Shown here: positions 2,796-35,359 of the stretch, one piece after another
Position numbering within the stretch: position 1 is the stretch's first letter
How the letters are laid out: the number at the start of each line of letters is the position of its first letter
NCBI GenBank assembly: GCA_016208645.1
Contig: JACQXP010000125.1
Coordinates: 1-36,831 of the forward strand
DNA length: 36,831 nt
Source: Candidatus Methylomirabilota bacterium
GTDB taxonomy: Bacteria > Methylomirabilota > Methylomirabilia > Methylomirabilales > 2-02-FULL-66-22
Direction: 5' to 3'
Position numbers and translations under genes: made by a program
Notes under the pieces: generated by a model
Database searches by the model: none
What the model saw: the letters and a program-made list of their open reading frames with translations, nothing else
What the model was told of the DNA's origin: nothing

Positions 2796-2828
2796 AATGA
2801 CCAATGACCAATTTCCAATGACCAATGG
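2796..2828 (+). repeat. Phased heptamer array, unit AATGACC, about 4.7 units
   Basis: AATGACC AATGACC AATTTCC AATGACC AATGG, read directly, lying between bamA and skp. Confidence 0.85.
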
Positions 2829-2879
2829 AGGGGACGGGTCCGGGGTTGAGGTTCCGGGAGAGAATGGGAGGCAGGGAAC

Positions 2880-3419
2880 GTGAATGTCGGGTTCCAGAGA
2901 GGCCGGGGGACGCTGCTGGCCGCGGCGGCTTGGGTGCTCTTCCTGGGGTGGGTGACGCCGGGGTGGGCGGCGCAGGCGGTCCGCCTCGGCATCGTGGATG
3001 TGCAACAGGTCTTGAATCAGTCCCAGAAGGGCCTGGCGCTCAAGCAAAAGCTGGATCAGGAGCGGGCGGCACGCCAGAAGGAGTTGGACGCTCGCCAGCA
3101 AGAGGTGATGAAGCTCCAGTCCGAGCTGGAGAAGCAGGCCCCGGTGCTGAGCGAGCAGGCCAAGCGGGAGAAATCCGAGGCGATCCAGCGCAAGGTCCGG
3201 GACGTCCGCCGGATCGCCGAGGATGCCAACCGGGACTTCGAGAAGCGGGTCCGCGAGGCGGAGATGGACATCACCCGGGGGATCTTTGCGGTGATCCAGG
3301 AGTACGGAAAGGACCAGGGCTACACCGTCATCCTGGAACGCAGCACCGTGGTCTTCGGCGCCCCCGCGGTCGACCTGACCGCCGAGATCATCAAGCGGTA
3401 CGATGGGAAGCAGAAGTAG
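2880..3419 (+). CDS. skp: Periplasmic chaperone Skp/OmpH
   Basis: 179 aa; GTG start preceded by GGGAGG; signal peptide ending PGWAAQA. The body is K/E/Q/R-rich and helical, typical of OmpH. It sits between bamA and lpxD. Confidence 0.8.
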   Translation: MNVGFQRGRGTLLAAAAWVLFLGWVTPGWAAQAVRLGIVDVQQVLNQSQKGLALKQKLDQERAARQKELDARQQEVMKLQSELEKQAPVLSEQAKREKSEAIQRKVRDVRRIAEDANRDFEKRVREAEMDITRGIFAVIQEYGKDQGYTVILERSTVVFGAPAVDLTAEIIKRYDGKQK

Positions 3420-3422
3420 GCA

Positions 3423-3492
3423 GAGAGCCGAGAGCCGCGAGCCGAGAGCCGAGAGGGAAGCGCCGAGCGCCGCGAACGGAGAGCCGAGACGG
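3423..3492 (+). repeat. Phased heptamer array, unit GAGAGCC, ten units in one phase
   Basis: GAGAGCC GAGAGCC GCGAGCC GAGAGCC GAGAGGG AAGCGCC GAGCGCC GCGAACG GAGAGCC GAGACGG. It begins 4 nt after the skp stop. The reverse-complement version occurs at 13389-13422. Confidence 0.85.
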
Positions 3493-3570
3493 AGCGGGTG
3501 AGGAGTTGAGGACTCCCGGCGCATTGTAGACGCACAGGATTTACCGGCAGGACAGGGGAAACGGGACGCC

Positions 3571-4596
3571 GTGCGACTGGGAGAGTTGGCGGAGCGATTG
3601 GGATGCCGGCTCGAGGGAGATGGCGGGCTGGAGATCGGGGGCGTGCGGGGTCTGGAGGACGCGGGCCCGCAGGATCTGACCTTCCTGGCCCAGGAACGGC
3701 ATCTTCCCCGGCTGGCTGGCTCGGCCGCGGCGGCCGTGATCCTTGCCGAGGGCTGGCCGCCGGTGGATCGCCCCACCCTTCGGACCTCCAACCCGTACCT
3801 CGCCTTCGCGCGCGCCTTGAGCCTGTTCCATCCCGCATCCGTCCCGCCCCCCGGCATCCACCCCACGGCGGTGGTGGCGTCTGACGCGCGCGTGGCCGCC
3901 AGTGCCAGCGTGGGCCCGTTCAGCGTCCTGGGTCCGGGCGCAGAGGTGGGAGCAGACACGATCGTGGAGGCCCAGGTGGCCGTGGGCGCCGGGGTGCGGA
4001 TCGGCCGGGGCTGCCGGATCTTCCCCCAGGTGACCCTGCGGGACGGCGTCGAGCTGGGGGATCGGGTCACCGTGCACAGCGGGGCCGTGATTGGCGCCGA
4101 CGGCTTTGGCTACGCCCGGGACGGCCATCGCTACGTCAAGATCCCCCAGATCGGCCGGGTCGTGATCGAGGATGAGGTGGAGATCGGGGCGAACGTGACC
4201 ATTGACCGGGCCACCCTGGGAGAGACCCGCATTGGACGCGGGACGAAGATTGACAATCTGGTCCAGATCGGGCACAACGTCCGCGTGGGGGCCGACACGG
4301 TGATCGTCGCGCAGGTCGGCATCTCGGGCAGCACGCGCATCGGATCCCGGGTCACGCTGGCCGGTCAGGTCGGCGTGGTGGACCATGTGGACATCGGCGA
4401 TGACGTGATCGTGGGCGCGCAAGCGGGCGTGACGAAGGACATCCCGGCGGGCTCTGTGGTCCTGGGATCGCCGGCCGTCCCCCACCGTGAGTTTAAGCGG
4501 CAGTTGGCAGCGGCCGCGAGGCTACCGGAGCTGCGCAAGATCCTGCGCGCGCTGGAGGAACGCCTGGCAGCCTTGGAGGCCCGCCTGTCAAGATAA
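3571..4596 (+). CDS. lpxD: UDP-3-O-acylglucosamine N-acyltransferase
   Basis: 341 aa with a GTG start. An N-terminal LpxD-type domain is followed by long hexapeptide (left-handed beta-helix) repeats and a C-terminal helical tail ([16 protein letters not shown]). Synteny skp-lpxD-fabZ. Confidence 0.9.
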
Positions 4597-4619
4597 GGGG
4601 CAGGCGGAGGGAGCAGAAC

Positions 4620-5090
4620 ATGTTGGGCCAGAAGGAGATCCAGGAGACCCTCCCGCACCGGTACCCGTTTCTCCTGGTGGATCGCATCCTGGAGCTGGAA
4701 CTGGGCAAGCGGGTGGTGGGGATCAAGAACGTCACGATCAACGAGCCGTTCTTCCGGGGCCACTTCCCGGGCCATCCAATCATGCCGGGGGTCCTCATCG
4801 TGGAGGCCATGGCCCAGGTCGGCGGGGTGCTCCTGATGCGCAGCCTGGACGCGCGGGCCGAGAAGAAGGTGATGTACTTCACCGGCATTGATCGGGCCCG
4901 GTTCCGGCGACCCGTGGTCCCCGGCGACCAGATCCGGTTCGAACTGGAGATCCTCCAGCTCCGCCGGCAGGTCTGCCGGATGAAGTGCGCGGCCTACGTG
5001 GATGGGACGCTGGTGGCGGAGGCGGAATTGAGCTCGGTGGTGGTGGACCGCGATCCCGCGGCGTCGGGGGACGCCCCCCTCACGGTGTAG
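4620..5090 (+). CDS. fabZ: 3-hydroxyacyl-ACP dehydratase FabZ
   Basis: 156 aa carrying [13 protein letters not shown] and [23 protein letters not shown], the hot-dog dehydratase signatures. Confidence 0.95.
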
Positions 5091-5096
5091 ACTGGA

Positions 5097-5195
5097 TCGA
5101 AATGTCGAATATCGAACAGCGAATGATGAACTTCGAACGGGCGGGAGCGCCGGGGTATCGGGTTCCTCGTTCGACATTCGTAATTCGAGATTCGG
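5097..5195 (+). repeat. Inverted pair of TCGAAnn-type heptamer arrays (left arm 5097-5139, right arm 5168-5195)
   Basis: Left arm: tcgaaatgtcgaatatcgaacagcgaatgatgaacttcgaacg. Right arm: cgttcgacattcgtaattcgagattcgg, complementary at the unit level. It shares the 16-mer ATGTCGAATATCGAAC (5102-5117) with 6881-6896. Confidence 0.8.
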
Positions 5196-5231
5196 CATGG
5201 TGGGTTTTTGAGCGGAGACGAAGGGGGTAAC

Positions 5232-6008
5232 GTGGTCACCGTTCATCCCACGGCCGTGGTGGAGCCCGGCGCGGAGTTGGCGGCCGGGGTCCAGGTGGGC
5301 GCCTACGCCATCCTGGGCTCGCAGGTGCGCCTGGGGCCCGGCACCTGCGTGGGCAGCCACACGATCCTGGAAGGCCGGGCGGACATCGGCGCGGACTGCC
5401 GCATCGGGTCCCACGTGATCATCGGGGCCCCGCCCCAGGACGTGAAGTACCACGGGGAGCCCACCGGGGTGGTCATCGGCGACCGCACCCTGGTGCGGGA
5501 GTTCGCCACGATCCACCGCGCCAGCACCGGCGGCTCGGGCGTCACCCGCGTTGGGCCGGAGAGCTTCATCATGGCCTATGCCCACGTGGCCCACGATTGC
5601 CAGTTGGGGGAACAGGTCATCATGGCCAACCAGGCCTCCCTGGCGGGCCACGTGGAGATCGGCCGGTGCGCCGTGATCGGGGGCATGAGCGGCGTGCACC
5701 AGTTCGTGCGGATCGGCGAATACGCGTTCCTGGGCGCCTGCTCCGCCGTCCTGCAAGACATCCCCCCCTTCGTCAAGGCCCAGGGAAACCGGGCCAAGCC
5801 CTATGGCCTCAACGTCGTGGGGCTCCGGCGGGCGGGGTTCTCGGCCGAAGCAATCCAGGCACTGAAACAGGCCTACCGCATCGTCTTCCTCTCCGACCTG
5901 AATACCTCCCAGGCGCTGGCGCAACTGGAGCAGGAGCTCAGCGGACCCCCCGAGGTGCAGCGATTCATTGACTTCATCAAGCGGTCCCAGCGCGGGATCA
6001 GCAAGTAG
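5232..6008 (+). CDS. lpxA: Acyl-ACP--UDP-N-acetylglucosamine O-acyltransferase
   Basis: Hexapeptide repeats, the HDCQLG motif and an LpxA-type C-terminal helical domain. GTG at 5232 follows GAAGGGGG and gives (M)VTVHPTAVV. The ORF-track start (TTG 5208) is an alternative. Confidence 0.88.
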   Translation: MVTVHPTAVVEPGAELAAGVQVGAYAILGSQVRLGPGTCVGSHTILEGRADIGADCRIGSHVIIGAPPQDVKYHGEPTGVVIGDRTLVREFATIHRASTGGSGVTRVGPESFIMAYAHVAHDCQLGEQVIMANQASLAGHVEIGRCAVIGGMSGVHQFVRIGEYAFLGACSAVLQDIPPFVKAQGNRAKPYGLNVVGLRRAGFSAEAIQALKQAYRIVFLSDLNTSQALAQLEQELSGPPEVQRFIDFIKRSQRGISK

Positions 6009-6014
6009 TCGGCG

Positions 6015-6815
6015 ATGGAAGCGCTGGGAATCCTCGCGGGCAGCGGCCGGCTCCCGTTCGTTGCCGCGGCCGAGGCGCGGCGCCAGGGCCTGCGCGTCGT
6101 CGCCGTCGCCATCAAAGACGAGGCCGACCCCGGGCTGGCCGCCGAGGTGGAGGCCATCCACTGGGTCCAGGTGGGGCAGTTGGGCGCCGTGGTCCGCGCC
6201 CTCCGCCAGGAGGGGGTGACCGACGCCATCCTGCTGGGGAAGGTGGAGATCACCCGGTTGTTCTCCCGGGCCCGCCCGGACCTGCTGGGAGCCAAGGTCC
6301 TCCTGAAGGCGCGGGACCTGCGCGGGGACAGCATCCTGGAAGCCATCGTGGACGCCCTGGCTGCGGAGGGGATCCGGGTCCTGGAGACGCCCCGCTTTCT
6401 CGGCCCCCTGCTGGTGCGCCCCGGACAGTTGACCCGGCGGGCCCCCACGGCACGGGAACAACGCGACATCGTCCTGGGCCGGGACGTCGCCCGGCAGGTG
6501 GCTGCCCTCCGGATCGGGCAGACGGTAGTCCTCAAACAGGGGACCGTGCTGGCGGTCGAATCGGCCGAGGGGACCGACGCCGCCATCCGGCGGGGCGGGG
6601 AGTTGGGCCGGGGGGGGATCGTGGTGGTGAAGGTGAGCCGTCCCGACCAAGATCTCCGGTTCGATCTCCCCACGATCGGCGCGGAGACGCTTGTCGTCTT
6701 GCGGGAGGCCGGCGCCACCGCCCTGGCCCTGGACGCGGGACGCACCCTGCTCCTGGATCGGGAGCGGTTCGTGGCCGGGGCGGACGAGCTGGACCTGGCG
6801 GTGGTCGCGGACTGA
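6015..6815 (+). CDS. lpxI: UDP-2,3-diacylglucosamine hydrolase, LpxI type (DUF1009)
   Basis: 266 aa with N-terminal LGILAGSGRLP and C-terminal EGTDAAIRRGGEL. It occupies the lpxA-lpxB slot where LpxI-type genes are found. No lpxH is present in the window. Confidence 0.8.
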   Translation: MEALGILAGSGRLPFVAAAEARRQGLRVVAVAIKDEADPGLAAEVEAIHWVQVGQLGAVVRALRQEGVTDAILLGKVEITRLFSRARPDLLGAKVLLKARDLRGDSILEAIVDALAAEGIRVLETPRFLGPLLVRPGQLTRRAPTAREQRDIVLGRDVARQVAALRIGQTVVLKQGTVLAVESAEGTDAAIRRGGELGRGGIVVVKVSRPDQDLRFDLPTIGAETLVVLREAGATALALDAGRTLLLDRERFVAGADELDLAVVAD

Positions 6816-6822
6816 GCCCAAT

Positions 6823-6933
6823 CCGTTCGAAATTCGCCGTTCGAAGTTCGTCATTCGATATTGCCGACGAGGACCCTCGAATGTCGAATATCGAACGCGG
6901 AATGTCGAATGACGAAGTGAAGATGTCGAATGG
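6823..6933 (+). repeat. Inverted pair of TTCGA/TCGAA-type arrays (left arm 6823-6863, right arm 6876-6933)
   Basis: Left arm: ccgttcgaaattcgccgttcgaagttcgtcattcgatattg. The right arm contains three atgtcgaat units. The last unit supplies the ATG (6930) of the downstream gene. Confidence 0.8.
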
Positions 6934-7868: not shown

Positions 7869-7869
7869 C

Positions 7870-7905
7870 CCGGATAATTCACGAACGGTCCCGTGAATTC
7901 TCCGG
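7870..7905 (+). repeat. Post-stop hairpin element, copy 2
   Basis: ccggataattcac (7870-7882) pairs with gtgaattctccgg (7893-7905) at 12 of 13 positions, with a 10-nt loop. It starts one C after the TAA. The right arm is identical to the copy at 2779-2791. Confidence 0.7.
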
Positions 7906-7918
7906 ACCAAATGACGCT

Positions 7919-8015
7919 GGTGGATCGGTGGATGGGTGGATTCGTGAGTGATGAACGCCGCAGGCCGATTTCCTGAACCACGGATTCACCAGTCCACGGG
8001 TCCACGCATGCATGG
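7919..8015 (+). repeat. Inverted GGTGGAT / GTCCAC-type arrays
   Basis: Left arm: ggtggatcggtggatgggtggattcgtgagtgatgaac (7919-7956). Right arm: gaaccacggattcaccagtccacgggtccacgcatgcatgg (7975-8015). I count about 20 of 27 positions complementary. The lpxB ATG lies in the right arm. Confidence 0.7.
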
Positions 8016-9162: not shown

Positions 9163-9178
9163 GGGTCACAGCATCGCC

Positions 9179-9856: not shown

Positions 9857-9861
9857 AACGC

Positions 9862-9935
9862 GTTCGGGGCACCCACGCCATTGCGGTGGATCCCCACCGC
9901 CGTGGCGTGGGTGCCGCGAACCACCGAACTTTTTT
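9862..9935 (+). promoter_or_regulatory. 28-bp imperfect hairpin plus a T6 tract immediately upstream of waaA (terminator/attenuator or REP-like structure)
   Basis: 9862-9889 pairs with 9894-9921: 25 Watson-Crick pairs, 1 G-U and 2 mismatches around a 4-nt loop. T6 lies at 9930-9935, 8 nt after the stem and 6 nt before ATG 9942. Confidence 0.55.
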
Positions 9936-9941
9936 GGAAGC

Positions 9942-12346: not shown

Positions 12347-13322
12347 GCGGTCCCGCTGGAGCCCGGCGGCGCTCCTGGAATGGGGACTGGTCGTGTGTCT
12401 TGCCAGGACGTTCGCCTGGCTGCCGGAATCGGCGGCGTATGCCCTGGGGGTGGGGGCGGGCCGCCTGGCCTTCCGGCTGGACGGGAGACATCGCGCCATC
12501 ACCGTGGAGAATCTCGCCCGGGCCTTTCCGGGCAAGTTCTCCCCCCCAGAGGTCGAGGCGCTGGCGCGGGCCGTGTTCGAGAACCTGGGACGGACGGCCG
12601 TGGACGTGGCGCGCTCGGACCGCCTCCTGCGCGGGTCGAGCCCGGAGGCCGTGCGTATTGACGGCCTGGCCCGGTTGCAGGAGGCCCGGCGGCGCGGCAA
12701 GGGGGTTCTCGTGATCACGGCCCACCTCGGTCCTTGGGAGCTTTTGCCTGTCATCATGGCCACTCGCTATGGGCCGGGCCATATGGTGGCCAGGCCTCTG
12801 GACAATCCCAGATTGGACGATCTGCTCACAGCCCTGCGGGAGCGGGGGGGAAATCGGGTCATCCGGAAGCGCGACGCGATCCTGGCGGTCCTCCCGATCC
12901 TCCGCCGCGGCGAGATGGTGGGCATTCTGATCGACCAGCACATCAGCGAGAAGGATGGGGTCGTCGTTCCCTTCTTCGGTCGCCCCGCCTCAACCGTCTT
13001 TGCGCCGGCCCTCCTGGCCTTGCGGTCGGGGGCGGCCGTCCTGCCCGCGGGCATCATCCGGGAGGGACGGGGGCGATACCGGGTCCGGGTCGCGGAAGAG
13101 GTGCCCGTGCGGCGGAGCGGAGACTTGAGGGCCGACCTGGTGGAGAACACGGCACGGTTCACGGCGGCCATCGAGGCGTTCATCCGGGTGCATCCGGATC
13201 AGTGGTTCTGGGTGCACCGGCGGTGGAAGACGCAGCTCCCGCTGGATCCGAAACTGGAAACTGGAAATCGGAAACTGGATGCGGACCCGGAACGTGTCGG
13301 AAGCGTCTCCGAGACAGACTAA
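12339..13322 (+). CDS. lpxL: Lipid A biosynthesis (Kdo)2-lipid IVA acyltransferase, LpxL/HtrB family, with a repeat-encoded C-terminal tail
   Basis: ITAHLGPWELL (HX4E motif) and HPDQWFWVHRRWK are the usual family signatures. About 30 further residues (…PKLETGNRKLDADPERVGSVSETD) run through the heptamer array at 13250-13278. Confidence 0.8.
   Translation: MAERSRWSPAALLEWGLVVCLARTFAWLPESAAYALGVGAGRLAFRLDGRHRAITVENLARAFPGKFSPPEVEALARAVFENLGRTAVDVARSDRLLRGSSPEAVRIDGLARLQEARRRGKGVLVITAHLGPWELLPVIMATRYGPGHMVARPLDNPRLDDLLTALRERGGNRVIRKRDAILAVLPILRRGEMVGILIDQHISEKDGVVVPFFGRPASTVFAPALLALRSGAAVLPAGIIREGRGRYRVRVAEEVPVRRSGDLRADLVENTARFTAAIEAFIRVHPDQWFWVHRRWKTQLPLDPKLETGNRKLDADPERVGSVSETD
13250..13278 (+). 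repeat. Heptamer array, unit GAAACTG, x4, inside the lpxL 3' end; partner arm at 13339-13351
   Basis: GAAACTG GAAACTG GAAATCG GAAACTG G. The complementary ccaatttccagtc lies just after the lpxL stop. Confidence 0.75.
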
Positions 13323-13369
13323 GGTCCGCTCCCGAGCCCCAATTTCCAGTCAGCAACGACACCGGCGCC

Positions 13370-14020
13370 ATGAATCTTTTTGATGCCTCTCTCGGCTCTC
13401 GGCTCTCGACTCGCGGCTCTCCGGCGGCGTTCCTGGACCGCGACGGCACGGTCATCGAGGATCTCGGCTATCTGGGCGATCCAGCAGGGATCCGGTTCAT
13501 CCCGGGCGCGCTGGAGGCCCTGCGGGCCCTCCGGCGCGCGGGGTTCCGGCTGGTCCTGGTGACGAACCAGGCCGGTGTGGCGCGAGGCCTGATCAGCGAG
13601 GCGGACGTTCGCCGGGTCAACGGCCGTCTGGCGGGCCTCCTGGCCGAGGCGGGAATTCCCCTCGACGGGATCTACTACTGTCCGCACCATCCGGAATACG
13701 GGCCGCCGGAATACCGGCGCGACTGCGACTGCCGCAAGCCGCGGCCGGGGATGATTCGGCAGGCCGTTCGCGACCTCGGGCTGGATCCCGCACGGTCGGT
13801 GGTCATCGGGGACCACGTCAGCGATGCCCTGCTGGCCCAGGCGTTCCCCGGGATGCGGGGGATCCTGCTGCGCACCGGGCACGGTGCCGAGCAGTGGCAG
13901 AAGATCCAGCAGGGTGAGCTGGCGCGCCCGGAACACGTTGCGGATGATCTCCGGGTGGCCGTGGAATGGTTCCTGGCCCGGGCAGGAGGGCAGGATGTCG
14001 TCGGTTCCCATCCGGCTTGA
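13370..14020 (+). CDS. gmhB: D-glycero-beta-D-manno-heptose 1,7-bisphosphate phosphatase
   Basis: HAD motif FLDRDGTVIED, VTNQAGVARG, the Zn-binding loop CPHHPEYGPPEYRRDCDCRKPRPGM, and GDHVSD. The only start in frame is ATG 13370, so residues 8-17 are encoded by a repeat array. Confidence 0.8.
   Translation: MNLFDASLGSRLSTRGSPAAFLDRDGTVIEDLGYLGDPAGIRFIPGALEALRALRRAGFRLVLVTNQAGVARGLISEADVRRVNGRLAGLLAEAGIPLDGIYYCPHHPEYGPPEYRRDCDCRKPRPGMIRQAVRDLGLDPARSVVIGDHVSDALLAQAFPGMRGILLRTGHGAEQWQKIQQGELARPEHVADDLRVAVEWFLARAGGQDVVGSHPA
13389..13422 (+). repeat. Heptamer array, unit CTCTCGG (reverse complement of GAGAGCC), inside the gmhB 5' coding region
   Basis: CTCTCGG CTCTCGG CTCTCGA CTCGCGG CTCTCC. It translates as LGSRLSTRGS. 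Confidence 0.8.
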
Positions 14021-15083
14021 CGGCGCCCGGCGAATCCTGCTGGTCAAGCCGAGCGCCCTGGGCGATGTGATCCACGCCCTCCCCGTGGCGGCCACCCTCC
14101 GCCGCCGCTACCCGAATATTCGCCTGGACTGGCTCGTCGAAGAAGAAGCGGCAGACCTCGTCACGGGACACCCCGCTCTGAGCGGGGTCGTGGTGTCGGG
14201 AAGGCGACGGTGGCTGCGGCAGCTCCGGAATCCGGTGGAGATCCCCCGAACGCTGATGGAGGCGAGACGCTTCGCCGCGGATCTCCGGCGCCGGCGCTAC
14301 GGCGCGGTGCTGGACCTCCAGGGACTGTTCAAGAGCGCGCTTTACGTCCTGGCGACCGGGGCTCCCATCCGGGTCGGCTTTGCCGAGGGGCGGGAGGGGG
14401 CGACGCGGGTCCTCACGCATCGGGTCGTGGCGCCGCCCCAGCCGGTGCACGCGGTGGACCGGTACCTGGCGCTGGCCGCGGCCGTGGATGCGACCGAGCC
14501 GGTTCGCGAGTTCCACATCGCCCTGGGTCCGGAGGATCTGGCCGCGGCGAGATCCCACCTGGCGGCTTGCCGGGTACCCCCTGGGTGCCCATGCGTCGTG
14601 TTGCACCCGGCGGCCCGCTGGCGCACCAAGCTGTGGGAGGTGGAGCGATGGCGCGAACTGGCGGCGTCGCTCCTGGCGGAAGGGATGGGGGTGATCCTCA
14701 CCGGCAGCCGGCAGGATGAGGCGTTGGCGGCGACGATCGTGACCGGCCTTTCCCCGCCGCCCGTGTCGCTGGTGGGGCGACTGTCCTTGAAGCAGCTTGT
14801 GGCCGTCCTTCGGGATGTGGACCTCATGATCACGGTGGACTCGGGCCCCATGCACATGGCTGCCGCGGTGGGGACCCCGGTCGTGGCCCTGTTCGGCCCC
14901 ACCGATCCGCGGCGCACGGGACCGCTGGGGCCGGGGGCCGTCCTGCGGCGCGAGCTGCCCTGCAGCCCCTGCCTGCGGCGAGGCTGCCAGATCGCGGACA
15001 CCTATCGCTGCATGCGCGATCTCGGCGTCGCCGAGGTCCTGCAGGCGAGCCGAGAGCTTCTCCGCACCCGTGCCCGACTCTGA
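13995..15083 (+). CDS. ADP-heptose:LPS heptosyltransferase (glycosyltransferase family 9)
   Basis: RILLVKPSALGDVIHALP is a GT9 N-terminal signature, and DSGPMHMAAAVGTPVVALFGPT a C-terminal one. ATG 13995 is preceded by AGGAGGG and overlaps the gmhB end by 26 nt. Confidence 0.82.
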   Translation: MSSVPIRLDGARRILLVKPSALGDVIHALPVAATLRRRYPNIRLDWLVEEEAADLVTGHPALSGVVVSGRRRWLRQLRNPVEIPRTLMEARRFAADLRRRRYGAVLDLQGLFKSALYVLATGAPIRVGFAEGREGATRVLTHRVVAPPQPVHAVDRYLALAAAVDATEPVREFHIALGPEDLAAARSHLAACRVPPGCPCVVLHPAARWRTKLWEVERWRELAASLLAEGMGVILTGSRQDEALAATIVTGLSPPPVSLVGRLSLKQLVAVLRDVDLMITVDSGPMHMAAAVGTPVVALFGPTDPRRTGPLGPGAVLRRELPCSPCLRRGCQIADTYRCMRDLGVAEVLQASRELLRTRARL

Positions 15084-16024
15084 TGAAACCGCAAATGAAC
15101 GCAAATAGACGCAAATGGTTCTCTCGGGCGGGCTCTCAGACAAAGAGGTCATCATTTGCGTTCATTCGCGTTTATTTGCGGTTGCATTTGGTTTTGATCG
15201 CGGTGCTGGTTTTCTTGGGACACGCATGGGCGGGGCAGGCGGCCGAGATGGAGCGCCTCTACCGCGAGGGCGAACGGTTGGTCTATGACGTGAGCTGGCT
15301 GGGGATCAAGGGGGGGCAGGCCACGCTCGAAGTCCGGGGCGTGGTCCAGCTCGACGGCCAGCGGGCGTACCACGTGGTGACGACGGCGACCTCGGGTCCC
15401 GTGCTGTCCAAGATCTACCGGGTGGACGACCGGACCGAATCCTACATCGCGCTCCACCCGATGCGGGCGCTGCGGTTCGAGAAGCACCTGCGGGAGGGCC
15501 GCTACCGGCACAGCAGCCAGACGGAGTTCGACCACGAAAAGGGCCGGGCGAGCTTCCGGTACCTGGATTTCAGCCGGGTGCCGCGGGAGGTCTCGCGGCT
15601 GGAAGAGGCGGAGCGCTACGGAACGTACGTGAACCAGGAGTTTCCCCTCACCCCCGGTGCCCTGGATGAGCTGTCGGTCCTGTACTACGTGCGGACCCTG
15701 CCCCTGGCCTCCAGCACGACGGTCGTGACCAGCGTGTTTGCCAGCAAGAAGAATTGGGACCTGGAGGTCAAGGTGCTGCGGCGGGAACCCTTGGAGACGG
15801 CCCTGGGCCGCCGAGACACGGTGGTGGTGGAGCCCCTCCTGAAATTCGAGGGGATCTTCCAGCGGAAGGGCCGGATGATCGTCTGGATGACGGACGATGC
15901 GGAGAGGATCCCGGTGCAGATGAAGAGCGAGATCATCATCGGCAGCTTCGTGGCGAGCCTTACCCGGCGGGAGGTCGGGACGCCCCCGCCGCGGCTGGAC
16001 CTTCCGGGAGGGCCAGCCCAATGA
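15083..16024 (+). CDS. DUF3108-like exported protein; start codon uncertain
   Basis: YDVSWLGIKGGQATLEV and the overall pattern fit my memory of DUF3108. A signal-like LHLVLIAVLVFLGHAWA is present. ATG 15083 would translate both repeat arms; TTG 15176 is an alternative. Confidence 0.6.
   Translation: MKPQMNANRRKWFSRAGSQTKRSSFAFIRVYLRLHLVLIAVLVFLGHAWAGQAAEMERLYREGERLVYDVSWLGIKGGQATLEVRGVVQLDGQRAYHVVTTATSGPVLSKIYRVDDRTESYIALHPMRALRFEKHLREGRYRHSSQTEFDHEKGRASFRYLDFSRVPREVSRLEEAERYGTYVNQEFPLTPGALDELSVLYYVRTLPLASSTTVVTSVFASKKNWDLEVKVLRREPLETALGRRDTVVVEPLLKFEGIFQRKGRMIVWMTDDAERIPVQMKSEIIIGSFVASLTRREVGTPPPRLDLPGGPAQ
15088..15191 (+). repeat. Inverted GAACGCAAAT-type arrays (10-nt period); left arm 15088-15117, right arm 15153-15191
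   Basis: The reverse complement of the left arm matches 15153-15182 at 26 of 30 positions; the loop is 35 nt. It shares ATGAACGCAAAT and TTCTCTsGGG with 28199-28240. Confidence 0.85.
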
Positions 16025-16989: not shown

Positions 16990-17275
16990 CTCTCGCCTCG
17001 ACATCCACCTTTCTCGCACCTCCACCTCGCTGCCAGGGCTATCCAGATTCCCCGACGGTCCATCGGCCCTATCGGGGCAGCTTCCTTCCTGCCTCTTCGC
17101 TTGGACCGAAAGGACCGTGTCCCGAGACAATCTCTGGAAAGACCTTGACGCTCCCCATCGGTTCAATTGAACATGTATGGAGGGGCGAGCTTGTGGGACC
17201 ATCGGGGGGCCGTGATGGATCGAGCGGGCTCCACTGCGGGGGCCGGGACGAACGGGGAGGGGGAGGAGGAGCGTC

Positions 17276-18350: not shown

Positions 18351-18352
18351 TT

Positions 18353-18469
18353 GAAAATTTCAAACTGACAATGGAAAACCGACAACGGGGCCGGACGTAG
18401 TTCGGCCCACAGGCGCCGGGCACCCGGGGATTGTTCATTGCCCGTTGTCGGTTCTCCATTTTTCATTGC
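18353..18469 (+). repeat. Inverted GACAAnn / CGTTGTC-type arrays
   Basis: Left arm: GAAAATT TCAAACT GACAATG GAAAACC GACAACG (18353-18387). aatggaaaaccgacaacggg pairs with cccgttgtcggttctccatt (18441-18460) at 19 of 20 positions. It shares CCGTTGTCGGTT and TTTTTCATTGC with 28290-28330. Confidence 0.85.
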
Positions 18470-18480
18470 AAGGCCGCATC

Positions 18481-21793: not shown

Positions 21794-21843
21794 GGATTTT
21801 CGATTTTGGATTTCCGATTTGGGATTTGGAAATCCGCAATCGG
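21794..21843 (+). repeat. Phased heptamer array, GATTTnn type, seven units
   Basis: GGATTTT CGATTTT GGATTTC CGATTTG GGATTTG GAAATCC GCAATCG. It contains the mini-palindrome ggatttggaaatcc. Confidence 0.85.
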
Positions 21844-23338: not shown

Positions 23339-23341
23339 TTG

Positions 23342-23448
23342 TGGATTGATGATTTCGGATTGACGATTTGGGATTTACGATTGTACAGTTACGACCTGAC
23401 GCGAGCCACTGCCGGAATCTCAATCATCAATCATCAATCTGCAATCTG
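23342..23448 (+). repeat. Inverted GGATTG/CGATTT (left arm 23342-23383) and CAATCnn (right arm 23414-23448) heptamer arrays
   Basis: Six phased units on the left and five on the right. The right arm contains CTCAATCATCAATCATCAATC (23419-23439), identical to 24716-24736. It abuts the ferredoxin RBS (GGAGGAGGAGGAGGG). Confidence 0.85.
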
Positions 23449-23466
23449 GAGGAGGAGGAGGGCAGG

Positions 23467-23827: not shown

Positions 23828-23860
23828 GCAGAGGCGCAGAGGAGCCGAGGAGCAGAGGGG
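23828..23860 (+). repeat. 8-nt-period array, AGCAGAGG type
   Basis: GCAGAGG CGCAGAGG AGCCGAGG AGCAGAGG GG, starting 20 nt after the ferredoxin stop. Confidence 0.65.
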
Positions 23861-24670: not shown

Positions 24671-24751
24671 CGATTTTTGATTTGTGATTGTGGATTTGCG
24701 ATTGACACCCCAATCCTCAATCATCAATCATCAATCGGCAATCATAAATCC
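24671..24751. repeat. Inverted GATTnnn (24671-24706) / nCAATCn (24710-24751) heptamer arrays with a 3-nt loop
   Basis: Five and six phased units. The cores GATT/AATC are complementary while the variable positions are often mismatched (about 23 of 35 by my count). 13 of the 36 nt in the left arm are G/C. Confidence 0.85.
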
Positions 24752-26205: not shown

Positions 26206-26213
26206 CGTCCGGC

Positions 26214-28162: not shown

Positions 28163-28198
28163 GAGTCCTCCTCGAGGCCGTAAGACTCAAACCATAGC

Positions 28199-28240
28199 AA
28201 CCGCAGATGAACGCAAATGAACGCAGATGATTCTCTGGGG
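28199..28240. repeat. GAACGCArAT-type 10-nt-period array (single arm), same subfamily as 15088-15117
   Basis: accgcagatgaacgcaaatgaacgcagatgattctctgggg. It shares ATGAACGCAAAT (28207-28218) and the TTCTCTsGGG flank with the array at 15088. Confidence 0.8.
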
Positions 28241-28252
28241 GGGTCCAAACCC

Positions 28253-28330
28253 AAAAACTGACAACCGACAACTGACAATCTGGCAATGATCCGTTGTCGG
28301 TTGTCCGTTGTCCGTTTTTCATTGCCAATC
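28253..28330. repeat. Inverted GACAAnn / CCGTTGT heptamer arrays abutting the GT39 stop
   Basis: GACAACC GACAACT GACAATC TGGCAAT, then CCGTTGT CGGTTGT CCGTTGT CCGTTTT TCATTGC. There are two exact helices: 28260-28272 with 28293-28305 (13 bp), and 28281-28289 with 28319-28327 (9 bp). Confidence 0.85.
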
Positions 28331-29824: not shown

Positions 29825-29899
29825 ACGAATAACGAATAACGAATGACGAATATCGAAGTCAAAAATTCGTAATTCGTAATTCGTAATTCGAAATTGCGT
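29825..29899. repeat. Inverted ACGAATr (29825-29859) / ATTCGTA (29865-29899) heptamer arrays
   Basis: Five phased units per arm with a 5-nt spacer. The arms align as reverse complements at about 23 of 27 positions in the best register. The element lies between the purE stop and the GT39 gene. Confidence 0.85.
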
Positions 29900-29909
29900 T
29901 GCGATCGCA

Positions 29910-30449: not shown

Positions 30450-30465
30450 ACACCCCCGTCCTCAA

Positions 30466-30533
30466 TTTTGGATTTCGGATTGCGGATTTCGGATTGAAAT
30501 TCGAAATCTGAAATTCGACATTCGAAATTTGCC
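30466..30533. repeat. About 9.5 heptamers in one phase filling the purD-purE spacer; the unit switches from TTnCGGA to TCGAAAT
   Basis: TTTTGGA TTTCGGA TTGCGGA TTTCGGA TTGAAAT TCGAAAT CTGAAAT TCGACAT TCGAAAT TTGCC. Confidence 0.85.
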
Positions 30534-30534
30534 G

Positions 30535-31818: not shown

Positions 31819-32182
31819 TCCGTTTCACCCGATGTGAAATGTGCCGGCCGTCAATGCCGGAAGTGACGGATGCCGGTGAAGACCATGGCCATTCCGTGCT
31901 CATCGGCGGCCGCGATGACCTCGGCGTCCCGGACCGACCCGCCGGGCTGAATCACAGCGGTCACCCGCGCCTCTGCAGCCGCGTCCACCCCGTCGCGGAA
32001 GGGGAAGAAGGCGTCGGAGGCCAGCGCCGTTCCCTGGGTGGGAAAGTTTGCCTTCATCCTGGCCAGCCTGGCGGAATCCACACGGCACATCTGGCCGGCG
32101 CCGATGCCGACGGTGGCACGCGCCGTGGCGAGGACGATCCTGCACCAGCATGCCCCCGCTGATCCGCCGCATTTCGAACCCG

Positions 32183-32217
32183 CTCATGGCTGATGGCTCA
32201 TGGCTGATGGCTGGTGG
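32183..32217. repeat. Five phased heptamers (CTCATGG/CTGATGG) inside the purH coding sequence
   Basis: CTCATGG CTGATGG CTCATGG CTGATGG CTGGTGG on the plus strand. The array lies within the stretch read on the minus strand as [13 protein letters not shown], in a loop that varies between PurH proteins. Confidence 0.8.
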
Positions 32218-32680
32218 CATCTCGAGGAGGCGGAGATTCTTCCGATCCTTGAGAATGCCCAAGGCCTCGGCCGTGTATCCCGGGGCGACGACGGCCTCCA
32301 CGAAGGTGGAGGCGATCTCCCGGGCGGTGGCGGCGTCCAGCGGGCGGTTCGACCCCAGGACGCCTCCATAGGCAGAGACCGGGTCGGTGTCGCGCGCGCG
32401 GGTGTATGCCTGGACGAGTTCGGCTGCGGTCGCCACGCCGCAGGGGTTCGTGTGCTTGATGATGGCGACCACGGGCTCCCCCCATTCCTGGGCCAGCTCC
32501 CAGGCGGCGTGCAGGTCCATGAGGTTGTTGTAGGAGAGTTCCTTGCCCTGGAGCTGGCGGGCGGCGGCGATCCCGCCCTGCAGGGCCAGGTCCCGGTAGA
32601 AGGCCGCCCGCTGGTGCGGGTTCTCGCCGTAGCGCAGCTCCTGCACCTTCTCCAACCGGACGTGGAGGAGATGGGGAAAG

Positions 32681-32701
32681 GCGAGCCGAGAGCCGAGTAC
32701 C
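32681..32701. repeat. Three GAGAGCC-type heptamers inside the purH interdomain linker
   Basis: GCGAGCC GAGAGCC GAGTACC. The 17-mer at 32681-32697 is identical to 3437-3453. It is read on the minus strand as VLGSRLA. Confidence 0.7.
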
Positions 32702-33386
32702 CCGCCCTGGGGCGGGGTGGGCGAGAGCCACGAGCCGTCGGGGGCGAGTTCTCCGCTCTCCAGGAAGCCCGCGATCAGCGCATCGTATCGCGCCGTGTGG
32801 GCGAACGCCTTCCGGGCCAGCCCGAATCGTGTCGCGCGGGACAGCCCGCCGTCATTCCGCTTCAGCTCGTCGAGGATGCTCTCGTAATCCTGCGGGTCCA
32901 CGATGACGGCGACCGCCGCGAAGTTCTTGGCAGCGCTGCGGATCATGGCCGGCCCACCGATGTCGATGTGTTCCACGGCCTCGGCCAGCGGGACGTCCCG
33001 GCGCGCCGTGGTCGCCTCGAAGGGATACAGGGTGATGGCCACCAGGTCGATGGGGACGATCCCCTGGGCGGCCATCTGGCCTTCGTGCCCCGGATTCCCC
33101 CGGATCCCCAGCAGCCCGCCGTGGATGCGCGGGTGCAGCGTCTTCACGCGTCCGTCCAGCATCTCGGGAAAGCCGGTAATCTCCGCAACGTCGGTCACGC
33201 GAAGGCCGCCCTCCCGCAGGGCGCGGGCGGTTCCCCCCGTGGAGATGAGATCCACCCCGAGGCCCGCCAGGCTGGCGGCGAACGGAATCAGCCCGGTCTT
33301 GTCCGAAACGCTCAGGAGTGCACGGCGCACGCGTGTCATCCGGTCTCCTCGTCCTCGGTGTGGCGCGTCAGGACTTCCAAGAAAAT

Positions 33387-33457
33387 CGTTCGGCAGTTCG
33401 ACCGTTCGAGGGTCCGGCAGTTCGTTGGGAACGCCCGAACCGCCGAACAGCCGAACG
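33387..33457. repeat. Inverted CGTTCGG / CCGAAC-type arrays upstream of purH
   Basis: cgttcggcagttcgaccgttcgagggtccggcagttcgttggg, then cgcccgaa ccgccgaa cagccgaa cg (8-nt period). Confidence 0.75.
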
Positions 33458-33572
33458 CTTTTCCTGGAATGAGCTGGTGTGTGGGACGCGACTGCGGACC
33501 GTTGAAAAAGCGAGCGGATGCTACCAAAAAGGGATGGCCCCGGCAAGGGAATTTTCCATGCCGGGGAGCGCC

Positions 33573-34154
33573 TCAGGATCCCGACGGCTCGATGGGCAGG
33601 TCATCGGTGAACCGATCCACGCTGAAAACCTGGATCTCGGCTCCATGCTTCCAAGCGTCGCCCGGCAGGCCGGCCTTCAGGCACGCCTGGCGGAGAAAGG
33701 TTTCACGGTCCCAGCCGAACTCGGTGGCCACCTGCGGCAGCAACAGGCCGTGGCGGCCCCCCTGGCTGATGTAGAGCCCGTGCGTGCCGACCTCGATCGC
33801 GGTGGGGTCGGGAATCACGCGCAGGGGCGAGAGCACGGAGACCTCGACCCGGAGGTGGGGGAACTCCTCCGGTGTGACGGGAGGGAACCGCGGATCGGCC
33901 GTGGCGGCCGAGGCCGCGCAATGGGCAACGGCCTCGGCCAGCGGCTTGATGGGGTCCACGTAGCCGATGCACCCTCGCAGCTCCTCATCGCGCGTGATAG
34001 TGACGAAGGCCGCCCCGGGCGTGCGTAAGGCCGGATCCTCCGCCGCCGGAGGCACATCCGGCGCGCCCCGTCCGCGTCCACGAATGGCGCGGCGGGCGAT
34101 GGCGAGCAACGCCGCACGATGCTCCGGGGTCAGGACGGGCGGGGCGTCGGTCAC
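33573..34154 (-). CDS. AMMECR1-domain protein (AmmeMemoRadiSam system protein A family)
   Basis: GAAFVTI...LRGCIGY and LLPQV are AMMECR1 signatures. The GTG start overlaps the upstream stop (GTGA). Confidence 0.85.
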   Translation of the reverse strand: MTDAPPVLTPEHRAALLAIARRAIRGRGRGAPDVPPAAEDPALRTPGAAFVTITRDEELRGCIGYVDPIKPLAEAVAHCAASAATADPRFPPVTPEEFPHLRVEVSVLSPLRVIPDPTAIEVGTHGLYISQGGRHGLLLPQVATEFGWDRETFLRQACLKAGLPGDAWKHGAEIQVFSVDRFTDDLPIEPSGS

Positions 34155-34678
34155 GCCGATCGCTCAGCGGCATCGCGCCGCCAGTAGAGCCGGACGAGCT
34201 TGTCTTCGTGGGAGAAGCGGATCTCCAGGGATCCGCCGCAGGCCTTGCTCACGGCGCGCCCCAAGCGGCGAGCCAGCTTTTCCGAGGTCGTCTCGACCAC
34301 GAGCGGGTACCGGGAATCCTTGTCGATGCGAAGGATGCGCTCCAGCGGATTCTTTGCCGCGGCTGCCCGCTCCGCATTTCGGAGGAGGTTGAGGATCTCG
34401 GCGCGGTTCTTCTTGAGAAACGACCCCGTCAAATACAGGATGCCGGCGGGGGTGCGCTCCTTGGCGCTGCGGCAGGCCGGACAGATCGCAGGGGCTGGCG
34501 TGTGCCACCGCAGCACCTCGCGGCGAATGGCAGGATCGAGAGACCAATTCCTCTTGCGCCACACGGCCTGACAGTGGGAGCAGATGGCGGGGTCACTTGG
34601 AGGCTTGAGGTCGGGAAGGGCGCTGGTGGAGGAAAGTGCCTTGTCGCGTCGGACGAACCGAGCCTTGGTAGAGAACAT
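34151..34678 (-). CDS. Small zinc-ribbon protein (CxxC...CxxC), possibly BCAM0308/NMD3-N-like; translationally coupled to AMMECR1
   Basis: 175 aa with CSHC...CPAC, then GILYLTG...NPLERI...VETTSEKLARRLGRA...LVRLYWRR. The family assignment is from memory only. Confidence 0.5.
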   Translation of the reverse strand: MFSTKARFVRRDKALSSTSALPDLKPPSDPAICSHCQAVWRKRNWSLDPAIRREVLRWHTPAPAICPACRSAKERTPAGILYLTGSFLKKNRAEILNLLRNAERAAAAKNPLERILRIDKDSRYPLVVETTSEKLARRLGRAVSKACGGSLEIRFSHEDKLVRLYWRRDAAERSA

Positions 34679-34784
34679 CGGTCTCCTCCTTGACAGCGGT
34701 CCAGGGATTGCTGCACTTCAATATAGGTCGAAAGGAGACGGCATGCAATCGCAGGAATCCTTCAGTCTTCTCAGGGTCTGGGGG

Positions 34785-34813
34785 TTGACAGAGGATAGGT
34801 CGCATGTTAAAAG
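34785..34813 (+). promoter_or_regulatory. Candidate sigma70 promoter for the rrf2-cysK-cysO operon
   Basis: TTGACA (34785-34790), a 17-nt spacer, then TAAAAG (34808-34813), 47 nt before ATG 34861. Confidence 0.45.
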
Positions 34814-34860
34814 TTGAGTCAATCGGTCGGCTATTTGGGATTTAAGCCGAGGGGGTAGCC

Positions 34861-35310
34861 ATGAGGATCAGCACGAAAGGCGACTACGCCACTCGGGCAT
34901 TACAGGACCTTGCCTTGCGTTATGCTGAAGGCCCTGTCCCCATCGAGGCCATCGCGCAACGACAGGCGCTGCCCGCCCGGTACCTGGAGCAATTGCTCCT
35001 GAGCCTGAAGCGGGCCGGCTACCTGGCGAGCAAGCGAGGCGTGAACGGGGGGTATTACCTGGCCAAGCCGCCGCGAGAGATCACCCTGGGCCAGGTCCTC
35101 CGGGCGGTGGACGGACCCGTCGCGCCCATCTTCTGCGTGTCCGAGGAGAACCCCCGGGAGCATTGTTCCCAGGAGACCTTCTGCGCACTCCGCGATGTCT
35201 GGGCCGAGGTGCGGGACGCCGTCTCGGCCATCGTGGATCACACGACGTTGGCCGATATCTGCGACCGGATCCGGGCGAAGACGAAAGAGCGGATCAGCTA
35301 CCAGATCTGA
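34861..35310 (+). CDS. Rrf2-family transcriptional regulator (IscR/CymR-like)
   Basis: Starts [18 protein letters not shown], with a winged helix ([28 protein letters not shown]) and three Cys ([17 protein letters not shown]). Confidence 0.85.
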
Positions 35311-35325
35311 CCCGGACGGGGGAAC

Positions 35326-35359
35326 GGCAATTGGGCAATCGGGCACTCTGGCAATCGGG
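35326..35359 (+). repeat. GGCAATC-type 7-9-nt array
   Basis: GGCAATT GGGCAATC GGGCACTCT GGCAATC GGG, lying between rrf2 and cysK. Confidence 0.65.

Follow-up and report, generated by a model that had tools for sequence, protein, structure and literature searches.

The DNA considered here is a 36,831-nt stretch (hereafter the window), contig JACQXP010000125.1 of an uncultured Methylomirabilota bacterium of the NC10/Rokubacteria type, in which most gene junctions are occupied by tandem arrays of short units, usually 7 nt long and often followed by an array of the reverse-complementary unit. The window has a G+C content of 67%, and Pfam analysis of its open reading frames (ORFs) resolved three gene blocks. 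The first, on the + strand, is an outer-membrane/lipid-A cluster consisting of bamA, ompH, lpxD, fabZ, lpxA, lpxI, a GFO-family oxidoreductase, lpxB, DUF374, kdtA, lpxK, lpxL, HAD, GT9, DUF3108, and an epimerase. In the second, the genes for a liv-type ABC transporter precede those for a response regulator, Memo, and a ferredoxin. The third comprises Usp, PAP2, an LPG-synthase-like protein, GT2, PMT_2, purE, purD, purH, and AMMECR1 on the - strand, and then Rrf2 on the + strand. Among the window ORFs, Pfam detected no transposase, no transposase of the type associated with repetitive extragenic palindromic (REP) sequences (RAYT), no other mobilizing gene, and no cas domain.

The nearest genomes are metagenome-assembled genomes (MAGs) of Methylomirabilota/NC10, with LpxI identities of 91% for RIFCSPLOWO2_12_FULL_66_18 and 60-83% for seven others. 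Parts of the window are matched at 99.5-100% identity by contigs of the MAG GCA_016207935.1 and of the Logan assemblies of the read sets SRR12113402 and SRR12113406. Junctions of the relatives were compared through LpxI-syntenic loci, and other matching sequence was taken from metagenome loci; the loci compared are cited by L-number.

Arrays were identified with Tandem Repeats Finder (TRF) on the Pfam-supported gene map, and counts refer to period-7 arrays of at least 3.5 copies. Intergenic DNA holds 13 such arrays in 3.2 kb (4.07/kb) and coding DNA four in 33.6 kb (0.12/kb), a 35-fold intergenic excess, and the four in coding DNA are confined to ORF ends and to a variable purH loop. When the intergenic DNA was dinucleotide-shuffled 200 times, 0.02 arrays were seen on average and never more than one; the arrays are thus not as frequent in shuffled or coding sequence as at junctions. 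Autocorrelating the bases of intergenic DNA gave maxima at lags 7, 14, and 21 (0.33, 0.325, and 0.319, over a background of 0.25-0.27), and coding DNA displays period 3 only. The 7-nt units stand head to tail in runs beyond chance, as long simple sequence repeats (SSRs) do. Period 7 is found at most loci, period 8 at 7919, 23828, 33387, and 35326, and period 10 at 15088 and 28199, and many arrays have a period-14 or period-21 superstructure. A TRF array is present in 15 of the 25 gaps of at least 20 nt, 14 of these 15 being co-directional; counting three further gaps by our own inspection (one with the 18351 hairpin, one with the 9857 remnant, and the lpxL-HAD gap, which arrays flank) would make 18. 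At most loci the array starts 2-20 nt past the upstream stop codon and 5' of the next ribosome-binding site, which is the intergenic, co-oriented, upstream-ORF-proximal placement of heptameric SSRs.

A previous reading of the window made from its letters and ORF translations, here called the sequence-only reading, had listed 18 array loci, and TRF recovered 17 of them; the exception, at 18353, is a 20-nt inverted repeat of 95% complementarity with weak 7-nt units. Its account of the arrays as strictly phased and AT-richer than the genes was borne out: 9.6 units run without indels at 3423-3489, and the G+C content is 48% in arrays, 68% in coding DNA, and 62% in other intergenic DNA, with the GAGAGCC, GCAGAGGA, and GTTCGGNN families as exceptions at about 70%. 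Its placement of arrays at almost every junction holds for most junctions, but not for almost every one. The contrast that it drew with four array-free gaps of promoter type is blurred, three of the four also being co-directional junctions, so that the label is partly circular. Two arrays, at 13389-13421 and at 32182-32218, had escaped this reading, as had a remnant at 9857-9944.

Inverted arm pairs occur at about 12 of the 20 array loci, in agreement with the sequence-only reading, and resemble the convergent pairs known from Xanthomonas; about eight loci have no partner arm. The arms contain 3-8 units and are separated by spacers of 0-56 nt, the architecture of the paired sites described in Geobacter. 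Nine of the 11 longest inverted repeats in the window are junction arrays, among them the 35-nt repeat formed by 15083-15117 and 15153-15187, with 86% pairing, and the repeat formed by 18370-18389 and 18441-18460, with 95%. The complementarity is regularly imperfect. The consensus units of the two arms are reverse complements save for exactly one position per unit in seven of nine pairs and two positions in the other two, and none of the nine is perfectly complementary; the resulting helices are 6 bp long (7 bp for octamers) between single mismatches. Arm lengths are often unequal (6 versus 4 units, 5 versus 8). Nine paired-array junctions fold far better than shuffled sequence, with z from -2.0 to -7.9; z is about 0 for four unpaired arrays, those at 2796, 3423, 7919, and 35326, which do not fold.

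Within the lipid-A cluster, the first array locus (2755..2830; TRF and fold) lies directly past the bamA stop codon and consists of a REP-like hairpin (CCCGGAAAATCCAC...GTGAATTCTCCGG) followed by 4.6 copies of AATGACC. A second copy of the hairpin lies directly past the stop codon of the GFO-family gene and is followed by three copies of GGTGGATN that abut the lpxB start (7869..7942), an arrangement conserved in L003. Between these two loci are a direct array of 9.6 GAGAGCC units with no inverted partner (3423..3492), the same unit being present at the orthologous junction of L003 and L005, and two inverted pairs. The first pair (5097..5198; fold z = -3.6) is composed of six CGAA-core heptamers, a GC-rich loop, and four TTCG-core heptamers, with one mismatch per unit; only its right arm (5170-5198) is above the TRF threshold, and the left arm was recognized by eye from its CGAA cores, which are in phase. 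The second (6823..6932; z = -4.3; TRF and inverted-repeat scan) has five TTCG-core and eight CGAA-core heptamers and is homologous to the L005 junction, and octamer GTTCGGNN hairpins are found there in L003, L004, and L006. At 9862..9921 a 45-nt nested mini-hairpin sits in the remnant of an octamer-array hairpin (inverted repeat 89% complementary), of which one GTTCG unit, two CGAAC units, and a T-run are left. The last codons of the lpxL ORF contain 4.3 copies of GAAACTG, with a short inverted partner at 13332-13350 (13250..13350; TRF and inverted-repeat scan), and the predicted N-terminus of HAD contains 4.7 copies of CTCTCGG, the reverse complement of the GAGAGCC family (13389..13421; TRF). 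The arrays at 13250-13279 and 13389-13421 reach into predicted coding ends, the first into the final 29 codons of lpxL and the second into the N-terminal tail of the HAD phosphatase, and in L005 (11195-11222) a different heptamer, CCTCACG, is repeated four times at the HAD N-terminus. Farther on lie an inverted pair of 10-nt units, CGCAAATGAA, three per arm (15083..15190; z = -7.0), with homologs at window position 28196 and in L003 and L114, and a long hairpin (18353..18465; z = -5.2) that has CCGACAA/TTGTCGG arms of weak heptamer periodicity, a loop in which GC-rich hairpins are nested, and ends shared with 28245-28330, L185, and L144.

In the remainder of the window, five GGATTTN units with the short inverted partner GGAAATCC occupy 21794..21840 (TRF; z = -2.0). 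The junction at 23343..23448 (TRF and fold) contains an inverted pair of six GGATTGA-type and five AATCATC-type units, a (GGA)n Shine-Dalgarno run, and the ferredoxin start. This Shine-Dalgarno region (23448-23462) is the run GGAGGAGGAGGAGGG, which is two triplets shorter in the sister strain, so that the strength of the ribosome-binding site may vary by slippage. A convergent gap contains 3.9 unpaired copies of GCAGAGGA, with period 8 (23828..23858; TRF). It is followed by an inverted pair of five GATTnnn and six CAATCnn units (24672..24750; TRF; z = -2.9), the arm 24716-24743 being 96% identical to 23419-23446. At 28202..28316 (DNA fold z = -5.5) a lone arm of the 10-mer family (28202-28230) precedes an inverted pair of four AACTGAC and four TCCGTTG units. 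The pair at 29825..29895 (z = -5.5) has 4.7 copies of ACGAATA and 4.6 of AATTCGT, forming 6-bp helices split by A-A mismatches, and the abutting arms at 30465..30529 (TRF), with 4.4 copies of ATTTCGG and 4.9 of GAAATTC, pair solely through G-T/G-U, on the + strand. In purH, 5.3 copies of GCTCATG/GCTGATG run in frame through a variable loop (32182..32218; TRF); this array has a period-14 superstructure in what is a variable surface loop, and the 14-nt double unit also occurs at unrelated sites in L009 (1258-1308) and L197 (5923-5969). An octamer-array hairpin of four GTTCGNNN and three CCGAACNN units stands between an A-run and a T-run at 33375..33469 (z = -7.9); stretches of 22-28 nt match the junctions downstream of lpxI in L004 and L006 at 96-100% identity. 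The last array, 4.2 unpaired copies of GGCAATCG with period 8 (35326..35359; TRF), belongs to a family also present in L091 (6.2 copies) and L189 (13.8 copies).

Some gene models of the window are irregular. Relative to the near-identical contig JACQZA010000385.1 (L085), 70 nt are missing from the PMT_2 gene (29782) and 125 nt from purH (32134); both losses cause frameshifts, the intact L085 proteins being 509 and 537 amino acids long, and they represent either assembly errors in the window or strain pseudogenes. The liv-type periplasmic binding protein is split into two ORFs (17276-18350) whose matches to the Peripla_BP_6 profile cover positions 2-122 and 183-342 and leave a gap of about 60 positions, which may reflect another deletion or frameshift in the assembly. 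An exact-protein look-up returned no record for purE or purD, and matches for the ferredoxin and Usp.

The unit had been described in the sequence-only reading as different at each locus, with the architecture alone in common. Many families are indeed present, but about ten of them recur within the window and across genomes. GAGAGCC is found at 3423, reversed at 13389, and also in L003, L005, and L007; units with TTCG/CGAA cores occupy five window loci and those with GATT/AATC cores four. The CCGACAA unit, the 10-mer, CCATSAG, and GGCAATCN recur in the window or in other genomes at non-orthologous sites, in some cases with shared non-repeat flanks, and non-orthologous copies of the octamer, the 10-mer, and CCGACAA are found in L003, L004, L006, L114, L144, and L185. 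Among 42 sites in 286 kb of clade sequence, 36 site pairs have units within one mismatch of each other, compared with a permutation mean of 17 and maximum of 29, although some of the 36 pairs are orthologous and inflate the count. Locus L091, otherwise unrelated to the window, carries at a non-orthologous site the same composite as 2755-2830: the 40-nt hairpin directly past a TAG stop, followed by AATGACC AATGACC AATTTYC AATGACC AATG, with the same defective third unit. Its array differs from that of the window at 1 of 33 nt, and its hairpin is far more diverged.

The window carries 4.9 period-7 arrays per 10 kb. The density is 2.1 in seven relatives and zero in L010, the most distant one, and it is 0.23 across 72 loci of other phyla that are syntenic, 12 of which have any such array. 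The inverted-arm architecture was also observed beside the lpx cluster of a Pyrinomonadaceae (Acidobacteriota) MAG (L017 1598-1662 and 4245-4345; z = -7.0 and -8.7) and of a Nitrospirota MAG (L018 6525-6632; z = -3.8). The arms in these two MAGs are tandem 7-8-nt units, and one of the hairpins has a perfect 22-bp stem.

Alignment of orthologous junctions, which the sequence-only reading had proposed, uncovered unit-number polymorphism between strains. The comparison with GCA_016207935.1 covered about 24.6 kb, at 99.5-99.6% identity, and all of the indels that it revealed between genes fall within an array or within the GGA run next to one. At 23441-23453, contig L083/L085 is one AATCATC unit (7 nt) and (GGA)2 (6 nt) shorter; the array at 30465 has one unit fewer in contig L085; and the CTCTCGG array (13397) of strain L001 carries a net 21-nt mini-hairpin insertion, in phase and with the HAD reading frame kept. 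The remaining arrays are identical between strains. The unit number of the array at 3423 differs from that in L003. Strain-level variation of this kind is a property of heptameric SSRs.

At greater distances whole elements are present or absent. The fabZ-lpxA gap is 8-11 nt long in L004, L005, L006, L008, and L009; in the window it measures 147 nt and contains an array hairpin, and in L003 it measures 166 nt and contains an unrelated palindrome (9052-9217). Similarly, the bamA-ompH element of the window is absent from L003, which has a different 65-nt hairpin there (6760-6824). L003, the nearest relative at the species level, thus has unrelated palindromes where the window has array hairpins, which makes such junctions hotspots where elements of several types insert. 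In many cases the orthologous junction of a relative is no more than 9-11 nt long or is occupied by a different element. The junction downstream of lpxI has an array hairpin in six of nine genomes, built from heptamers, octamers, or unrelated units. Comparison of filled with empty junctions revealed no target-site duplication.

Two small hairpin elements accompany the arrays, one of 40 nt at 2755 and 7869 and the other the mini-hairpin of 45 nt; REP-like behavior is limited to these two and does not extend to the arrays themselves. The 40-nt REP-like hairpin (CCCGGAnAATTCAC...GTGAATTCTCCGG) is found in the window (2755-2795 and 7869-7906), in L003 (11843-11880), and in L091 (9353-9392). It begins on the base right after a TAG or TAA stop codon at all three independent sites, and each copy is followed by a tandem array, the unit being different each time. 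The mini-hairpin is nested and 45 nt long, GGGACCCACGGCACC-GCGGTGGATNCCCACCGC-CGTGGCGTGGGTGCC. At the junction corresponding to 9862-9921, L003 and L005 have an uninterrupted octamer hairpin, the middle of which is replaced by the mini-hairpin in the window. A metagenome scan for the inner palindrome brought the number of copies to 16, including those of the window and L004; the sites on record are window 9862-9921, L001 9533-9560, L004 10870-10925, and L091, L114, L117, L134, L144, L152, L157, L159, L160, L171, L185, L189, L196, and L197. Fifteen of the 16 copies lie in the CGAAC arm of GTTCGGNN/NNCCGAAC hairpins, in a single orientation and usually with CCG on both sides. The 21-nt insertion in the L001 heptamer array is the outer stem of the mini-hairpin alone, and it is present or absent between strains that are 99.5% identical. 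The mini-hairpin looks like a very small, target-specific mobile element. The small dispersed repeats (SDRs) of Nostoc punctiforme, reportedly described by Elhai et al. in 2008, are said to be 21-27 nt long and inserted in tandem short-unit arrays. The mini-hairpin is like them in its size (21 or 45 nt), its position inside tandem short-unit arrays, and its strain polymorphism, a likeness of description; its main target is the octamer (CCGAAC) array and its orientation is fixed in 15 of 16 copies.

The view that the arrays fall outside every described repeat class, toward which the sequence-only reading leaned, is not supported, there being precedents in Xanthomonas, Geobacter metallireducens, and Nostoc. 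According to the summary of Mrazek (2007) given in PMC4679880, long SSRs have units of 5-11 nt, heptanucleotides are their most abundant class in most genomes, and polymerase slippage was proposed as their source. Xanthomonas has about 186 heterogeneous GGGAATC arrays, 89-93% of them intergenic and mostly between co-oriented ORFs near the upstream ORF, and 70-75 convergent pairs per genome are capable of forming stem-loops (Rehm et al. 2015, PMC4692102). The Nostoc heptamer is GGGGAYT, and few inverted pairs have been reported in Nostoc (PMC4692102). The window arrays share with these SSRs the heterogeneous 7-nt units and the intergenic location near the upstream ORF, and a division into conserved and variable positions, known from Xanthomonas and Nostoc, is suggested here too; the Xanthomonas and Nostoc arrays typically have about four units and vary in length between close relatives, for which slippage has been proposed. 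In Xanthomonas and Nostoc one G-rich unit dominates and attention has centered on G-quadruplexes, whereas the window contains at least ten mostly AT-richer families, with periods 8 and 10 as well. The window is also far denser, with its 4.9 period-7 arrays per 10 kb and 15 of 25 gaps occupied, than Xanthomonas with about 186 arrays per genome of about 5 Mb.

The closest architectural match is provided by Geobacter metallireducens, in which 24, 21, and 8 pairs of tandem octa- or heptanucleotide sites lie on opposite strands, some inside operons, such as the one found between proB and proA (PMC2700814). The insertion sequences ISGme8/9 are inserted at a fixed distance from these sites, which were interpreted, without a test, as sites for an IHF/HU-type regulator (Aklujkar et al. 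2009, PMC2700814). Both there and in the window, multicopy families of paired sites stand at variable distances, with 3-5 units of 7-9 nt per strand in Geobacter. The unit sequences differ, full insertion sequences take the place of the 45-nt hairpin of the window, and no slippage polymorphism was reported in Geobacter. Nostoc also has GAC(C/T)AAT repeated eight times upstream of recO, and heptamer repeats upstream of recF/recO (bioRxiv 10.1101/2022.06.06.494920). The AATGACC unit of the window is a rotation of this repeat. Nostoc GAC(C/T)AAT is presumably the reverse complement of TTGGTCA, the unit of STRR2, one of the short tandemly repeated repetitive (STRR) heptamer sequences that Mazel et al. 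reportedly described in cyanobacteria in 1990, and with which heptamer tandem repeats in bacterial intergenic DNA are said to have been on record since that year. The Nostoc and STRR repeats, like those of the window, are tandem heptamers next to start codons and between operon genes; unlike them, they occur in genomes of low G+C content. In marine Beggiatoaceae, cyanobacteria, and Bacteroidetes, 2-6 tandem copies of TAACTGA lie in intergenic DNA just upstream of start codons (MacGregor 2015, PMC4679880); 169 of 170 sets are direct and one is indirect, and a role in translation has been proposed (PMC4679880). The window unit CAACTGA (28256) is one base off this heptamer, but TAACTGA is a single unit and the window has many.

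The arrays have in common with REP sequences and their compound forms, the bacterial interspersed mosaic element (BIME) and the REP doublet (REPIN), and with miniature inverted-repeat transposable elements (MITEs), that they are small, non-coding, hairpin-forming, dispersed past stop codons among co-transcribed genes, strain-polymorphic, and targets of mobile elements. A REP family has one conserved palindrome and a RAYT, whereas the arrays have many unrelated units; a MITE has terminal inverted repeats, a target-site duplication, and a parent insertion sequence, whereas the arrays have inverted arms and no duplication at filled or empty junctions. Tandem short units are absent as a feature from the REP and MITE families. 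CRISPR arrays, in which repeats of 23-47 nt alternate with unique spacers of about the same length, usually near cas genes, were rejected: the array units are 7-10 nt, contiguous, and spacerless, and the window has no cas domains. The architecture is therefore one that has already been described, and the window is a dense new example of it, not a new kind of element. The density of heptamer arrays in Methylomirabilota appears to be without earlier report in the literature searched: the Rokubacteria genome paper does not mention repeats, and a 2025 survey of short tandem repeats does not mention heptamers.

On balance, we think it probable, by a narrow margin over even odds, that the arrays are small dispersed palindromic elements whose arms are SSRs, resized by replication slippage, and that they colonize the short gaps past stop codons in this lineage. 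As observed, an element is a run of 7-nt (sometimes 8- or 10-nt) units, usually followed by a run of the reverse-complement unit. Growth and shrinkage of the arrays would take place by replication slippage, as the whole-unit changes between strains, the unequal arms, and the period-14 and period-21 superstructure suggest, and units of this length would escape mismatch repair. Each arm would homogenize within itself faster than against its partner, a form of concerted evolution, and homogenization of a single arm-specific substitution within an arm would give the regular helix with one mismatch per unit. Perfect long palindromes would probably be removed. Spread to new junctions could occur by hairpin-DNA transposition, with an enzyme encoded outside the window, or by recombination between copies. 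Paired arrays, if transcribed, would form long imperfect hairpins that could incidentally slow 3'-exonucleases or attenuate read-through, and we regard any such effect on mRNA as a by-product and not as the reason for the existence of the arrays. A slippage-prone selfish element was one of three roles raised in the sequence-only reading, and it is the one that is directly supported, by the one-unit polymorphisms between strains, the presence or absence of elements at orthologous junctions, and the near-identical copies at non-orthologous sites.

Several observations weigh against this proposal. With no transposase or RAYT in the window and no target-site duplication, the case for mobility is one of distribution only. 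The better conservation of the L091 array than of its adjoining hairpin is unexpected if the arrays are neutral and could mean constraint, and the lpxI-downstream array hairpin, kept in six of nine genomes with differing units, could reflect a structural need. About 17 of the 20 arrays are unchanged between strains, so that slippage is not fast, and slippage alone does not explain why units of 7 nt should be favored over those of 5, 6, or 9 nt. Transposon footprints or target-site duplications were also considered as a source of the 7-nt unit and rejected, there being no duplication at filled or empty sites and periods of 7, 8, and 10 coexisting.

A selected function as RNA punctuation, also raised in the sequence-only reading, is conceivable but doubtful. 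The mRNA hairpins would shield the cistrons upstream against 3'-exonucleases or would bring about partial termination or attenuation within operons, in the manner of REP/BIME sequences in enterobacteria, and their regular mismatches would avoid cleavage by RNase III. The placement of the arrays, 2-20 nt past stop codons and upstream of the next ribosome-binding site, is what this function would call for, as are the strong folds of the nine paired-array junctions, the absence of any perfectly complementary arm pair, and the lpxI-downstream hairpin retained in six genomes despite its differing units. The folds carry no mark of the transcribed strand, however: across 23 hairpins, sense and antisense folds did not differ systematically, with 51 versus 58 G-U pairs and unbiased energies, so that an RNA role and an origin at the DNA level are not told apart by this comparison. 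T-runs follow several hairpins (9857, 28290, 33435, and the octamer hairpins of L003 and L005), but a scan of window positions 1-19000 with a terminator consensus found 10 sites against 8.2 expected, only two of which touch arrays. Intrinsic terminators were accordingly rejected, the stems being long, AT-richer, and interrupted, with T-runs after a minority of them. In addition, eight of the approximately 20 array loci have no partner and do not fold, many relatives have junctions of 9-11 nt at the same positions, and the GAGAGCC family is found both along and against the direction of transcription. An Rfam search assigned the hairpins to no family; its sole match, of the 33380-33462 hairpin to mir-341, was below threshold (29 bits versus a gathering score of 90), and we regard the match to this animal miRNA precursor as a chance resemblance between hairpins built from repeats. 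CsrA-type GGA motifs were set aside on inspection, about half of the units containing GGA in no consistent pattern.

The third proposed role, as binding arrays, seems unlikely. Phased units would bind a multimeric or cooperative protein, either on single-stranded RNA or DNA, with cold-shock-domain or S1-type proteins, which cover about 6-7 nt, as candidates, or on duplex DNA, with a nucleoid-associated protein or global regulator of the kind proposed for Geobacter. The GATT- and TTCG-core arrays have an invariant 4-nt core and three variable positions, like the (GGGANTN)n arrays of Xanthomonas (PMC4692102). Deviations from the unit cluster at three positions in these two kinds of array (P = 0.04-0.11 each), but the combined P of 0.068 is not significant; the core-versus-variable structure is suggestive only and too weak to claim constraint. 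The same or nearly the same heptamers recur in distant phyla (GACCAAT in Nostoc; CAACTGA compared with TAACTGA in Beggiatoaceae), although such near-matches are, on a rough estimate, close to chance. Better conservation of the L091 array than of its flank is as expected of a binding site. At least ten families with unrelated cores in 37 kb would, however, call for many specificities, periods of 7, 8, and 10 nt stand side by side, and the window encodes no candidate protein. For punctuation and binding alike, no test turned in favor of the role, whether strand symmetry, terminators, Rfam, or the position test.

Purely local SSRs, growing by slippage in place from a chance seed, with inverted arms formed by local template switching and no dispersal, are improbable. 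The one-unit polymorphisms between strains fit local growth, and so does the second copy of the REP-like hairpin (7869), which ends in a single AATGAC where the first is followed by 4.6 copies of AATGACC, consistent with local amplification. Local origin does not account for the non-repeat flanks and idiosyncratic defective units shared by non-orthologous copies, for the recurrence of unit families beyond chance, or for a 115-nt hairpin with a unique GC-rich loop at a junction for which five relatives have only 8-11 nt.

A more far-reaching interpretation, to which we give little credence, is that the arrays are the cis-elements of a cross-phylum system in which a trans-acting factor reads or writes 7-nt phased motifs on single-stranded nucleic acid. 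It is equally a long shot that such a dedicated system maintains a small repertoire of heptamers, for example GACCAAT, units with AATC/GATT cores, and CAACTGA-like units. If true, it would explain the shared units and the array-targeting SDR-like hairpins in cyanobacteria, Xanthomonas, Geobacter, Acidobacteriota, Nitrospirota, and Methylomirabilota, and the helices with one mismatch per unit would be a designed feature. Unit identity across phyla was nevertheless rejected as a sign of a shared factor: about ten families yielded one exact match (GACCAAT) and two or three near-matches, which is near chance by a rough estimate based on approximately 1,170 rotation- and strand-equivalent heptamers, and we therefore make no claim of a shared factor. 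An assembly or sequencing artefact can safely be dismissed because, although the 70-nt (PMT_2) and 125-nt (purH) losses mean that the window assembly has errors or pseudogenes, the arrays recur base for base, except for three indels, in three independent assemblies (GCA_016207935.1 and the Logan assemblies of SRR12113402 and SRR12113406), and similar arrays are found in more than 20 other genomes or contigs.

Heptamer repeats have been known since 2007 as the most abundant class of long SSRs. In this lineage their density is approximately 20 times that at the same locus in other phyla, and most operon junctions are occupied. The presence of many families in paired and unpaired forms, strain-level slippage, and a hairpin that targets the arrays makes the lineage a natural system for studying how arrays are born, resized, and spread. 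Population metagenomes of Methylomirabilota are suited to measuring the dynamics of the arrays, and metatranscriptomes from the same sites could reveal effects on operon expression. For annotation, the lesson is that repeats at gene junctions, and the small insertions within them, are real and not assembly noise.

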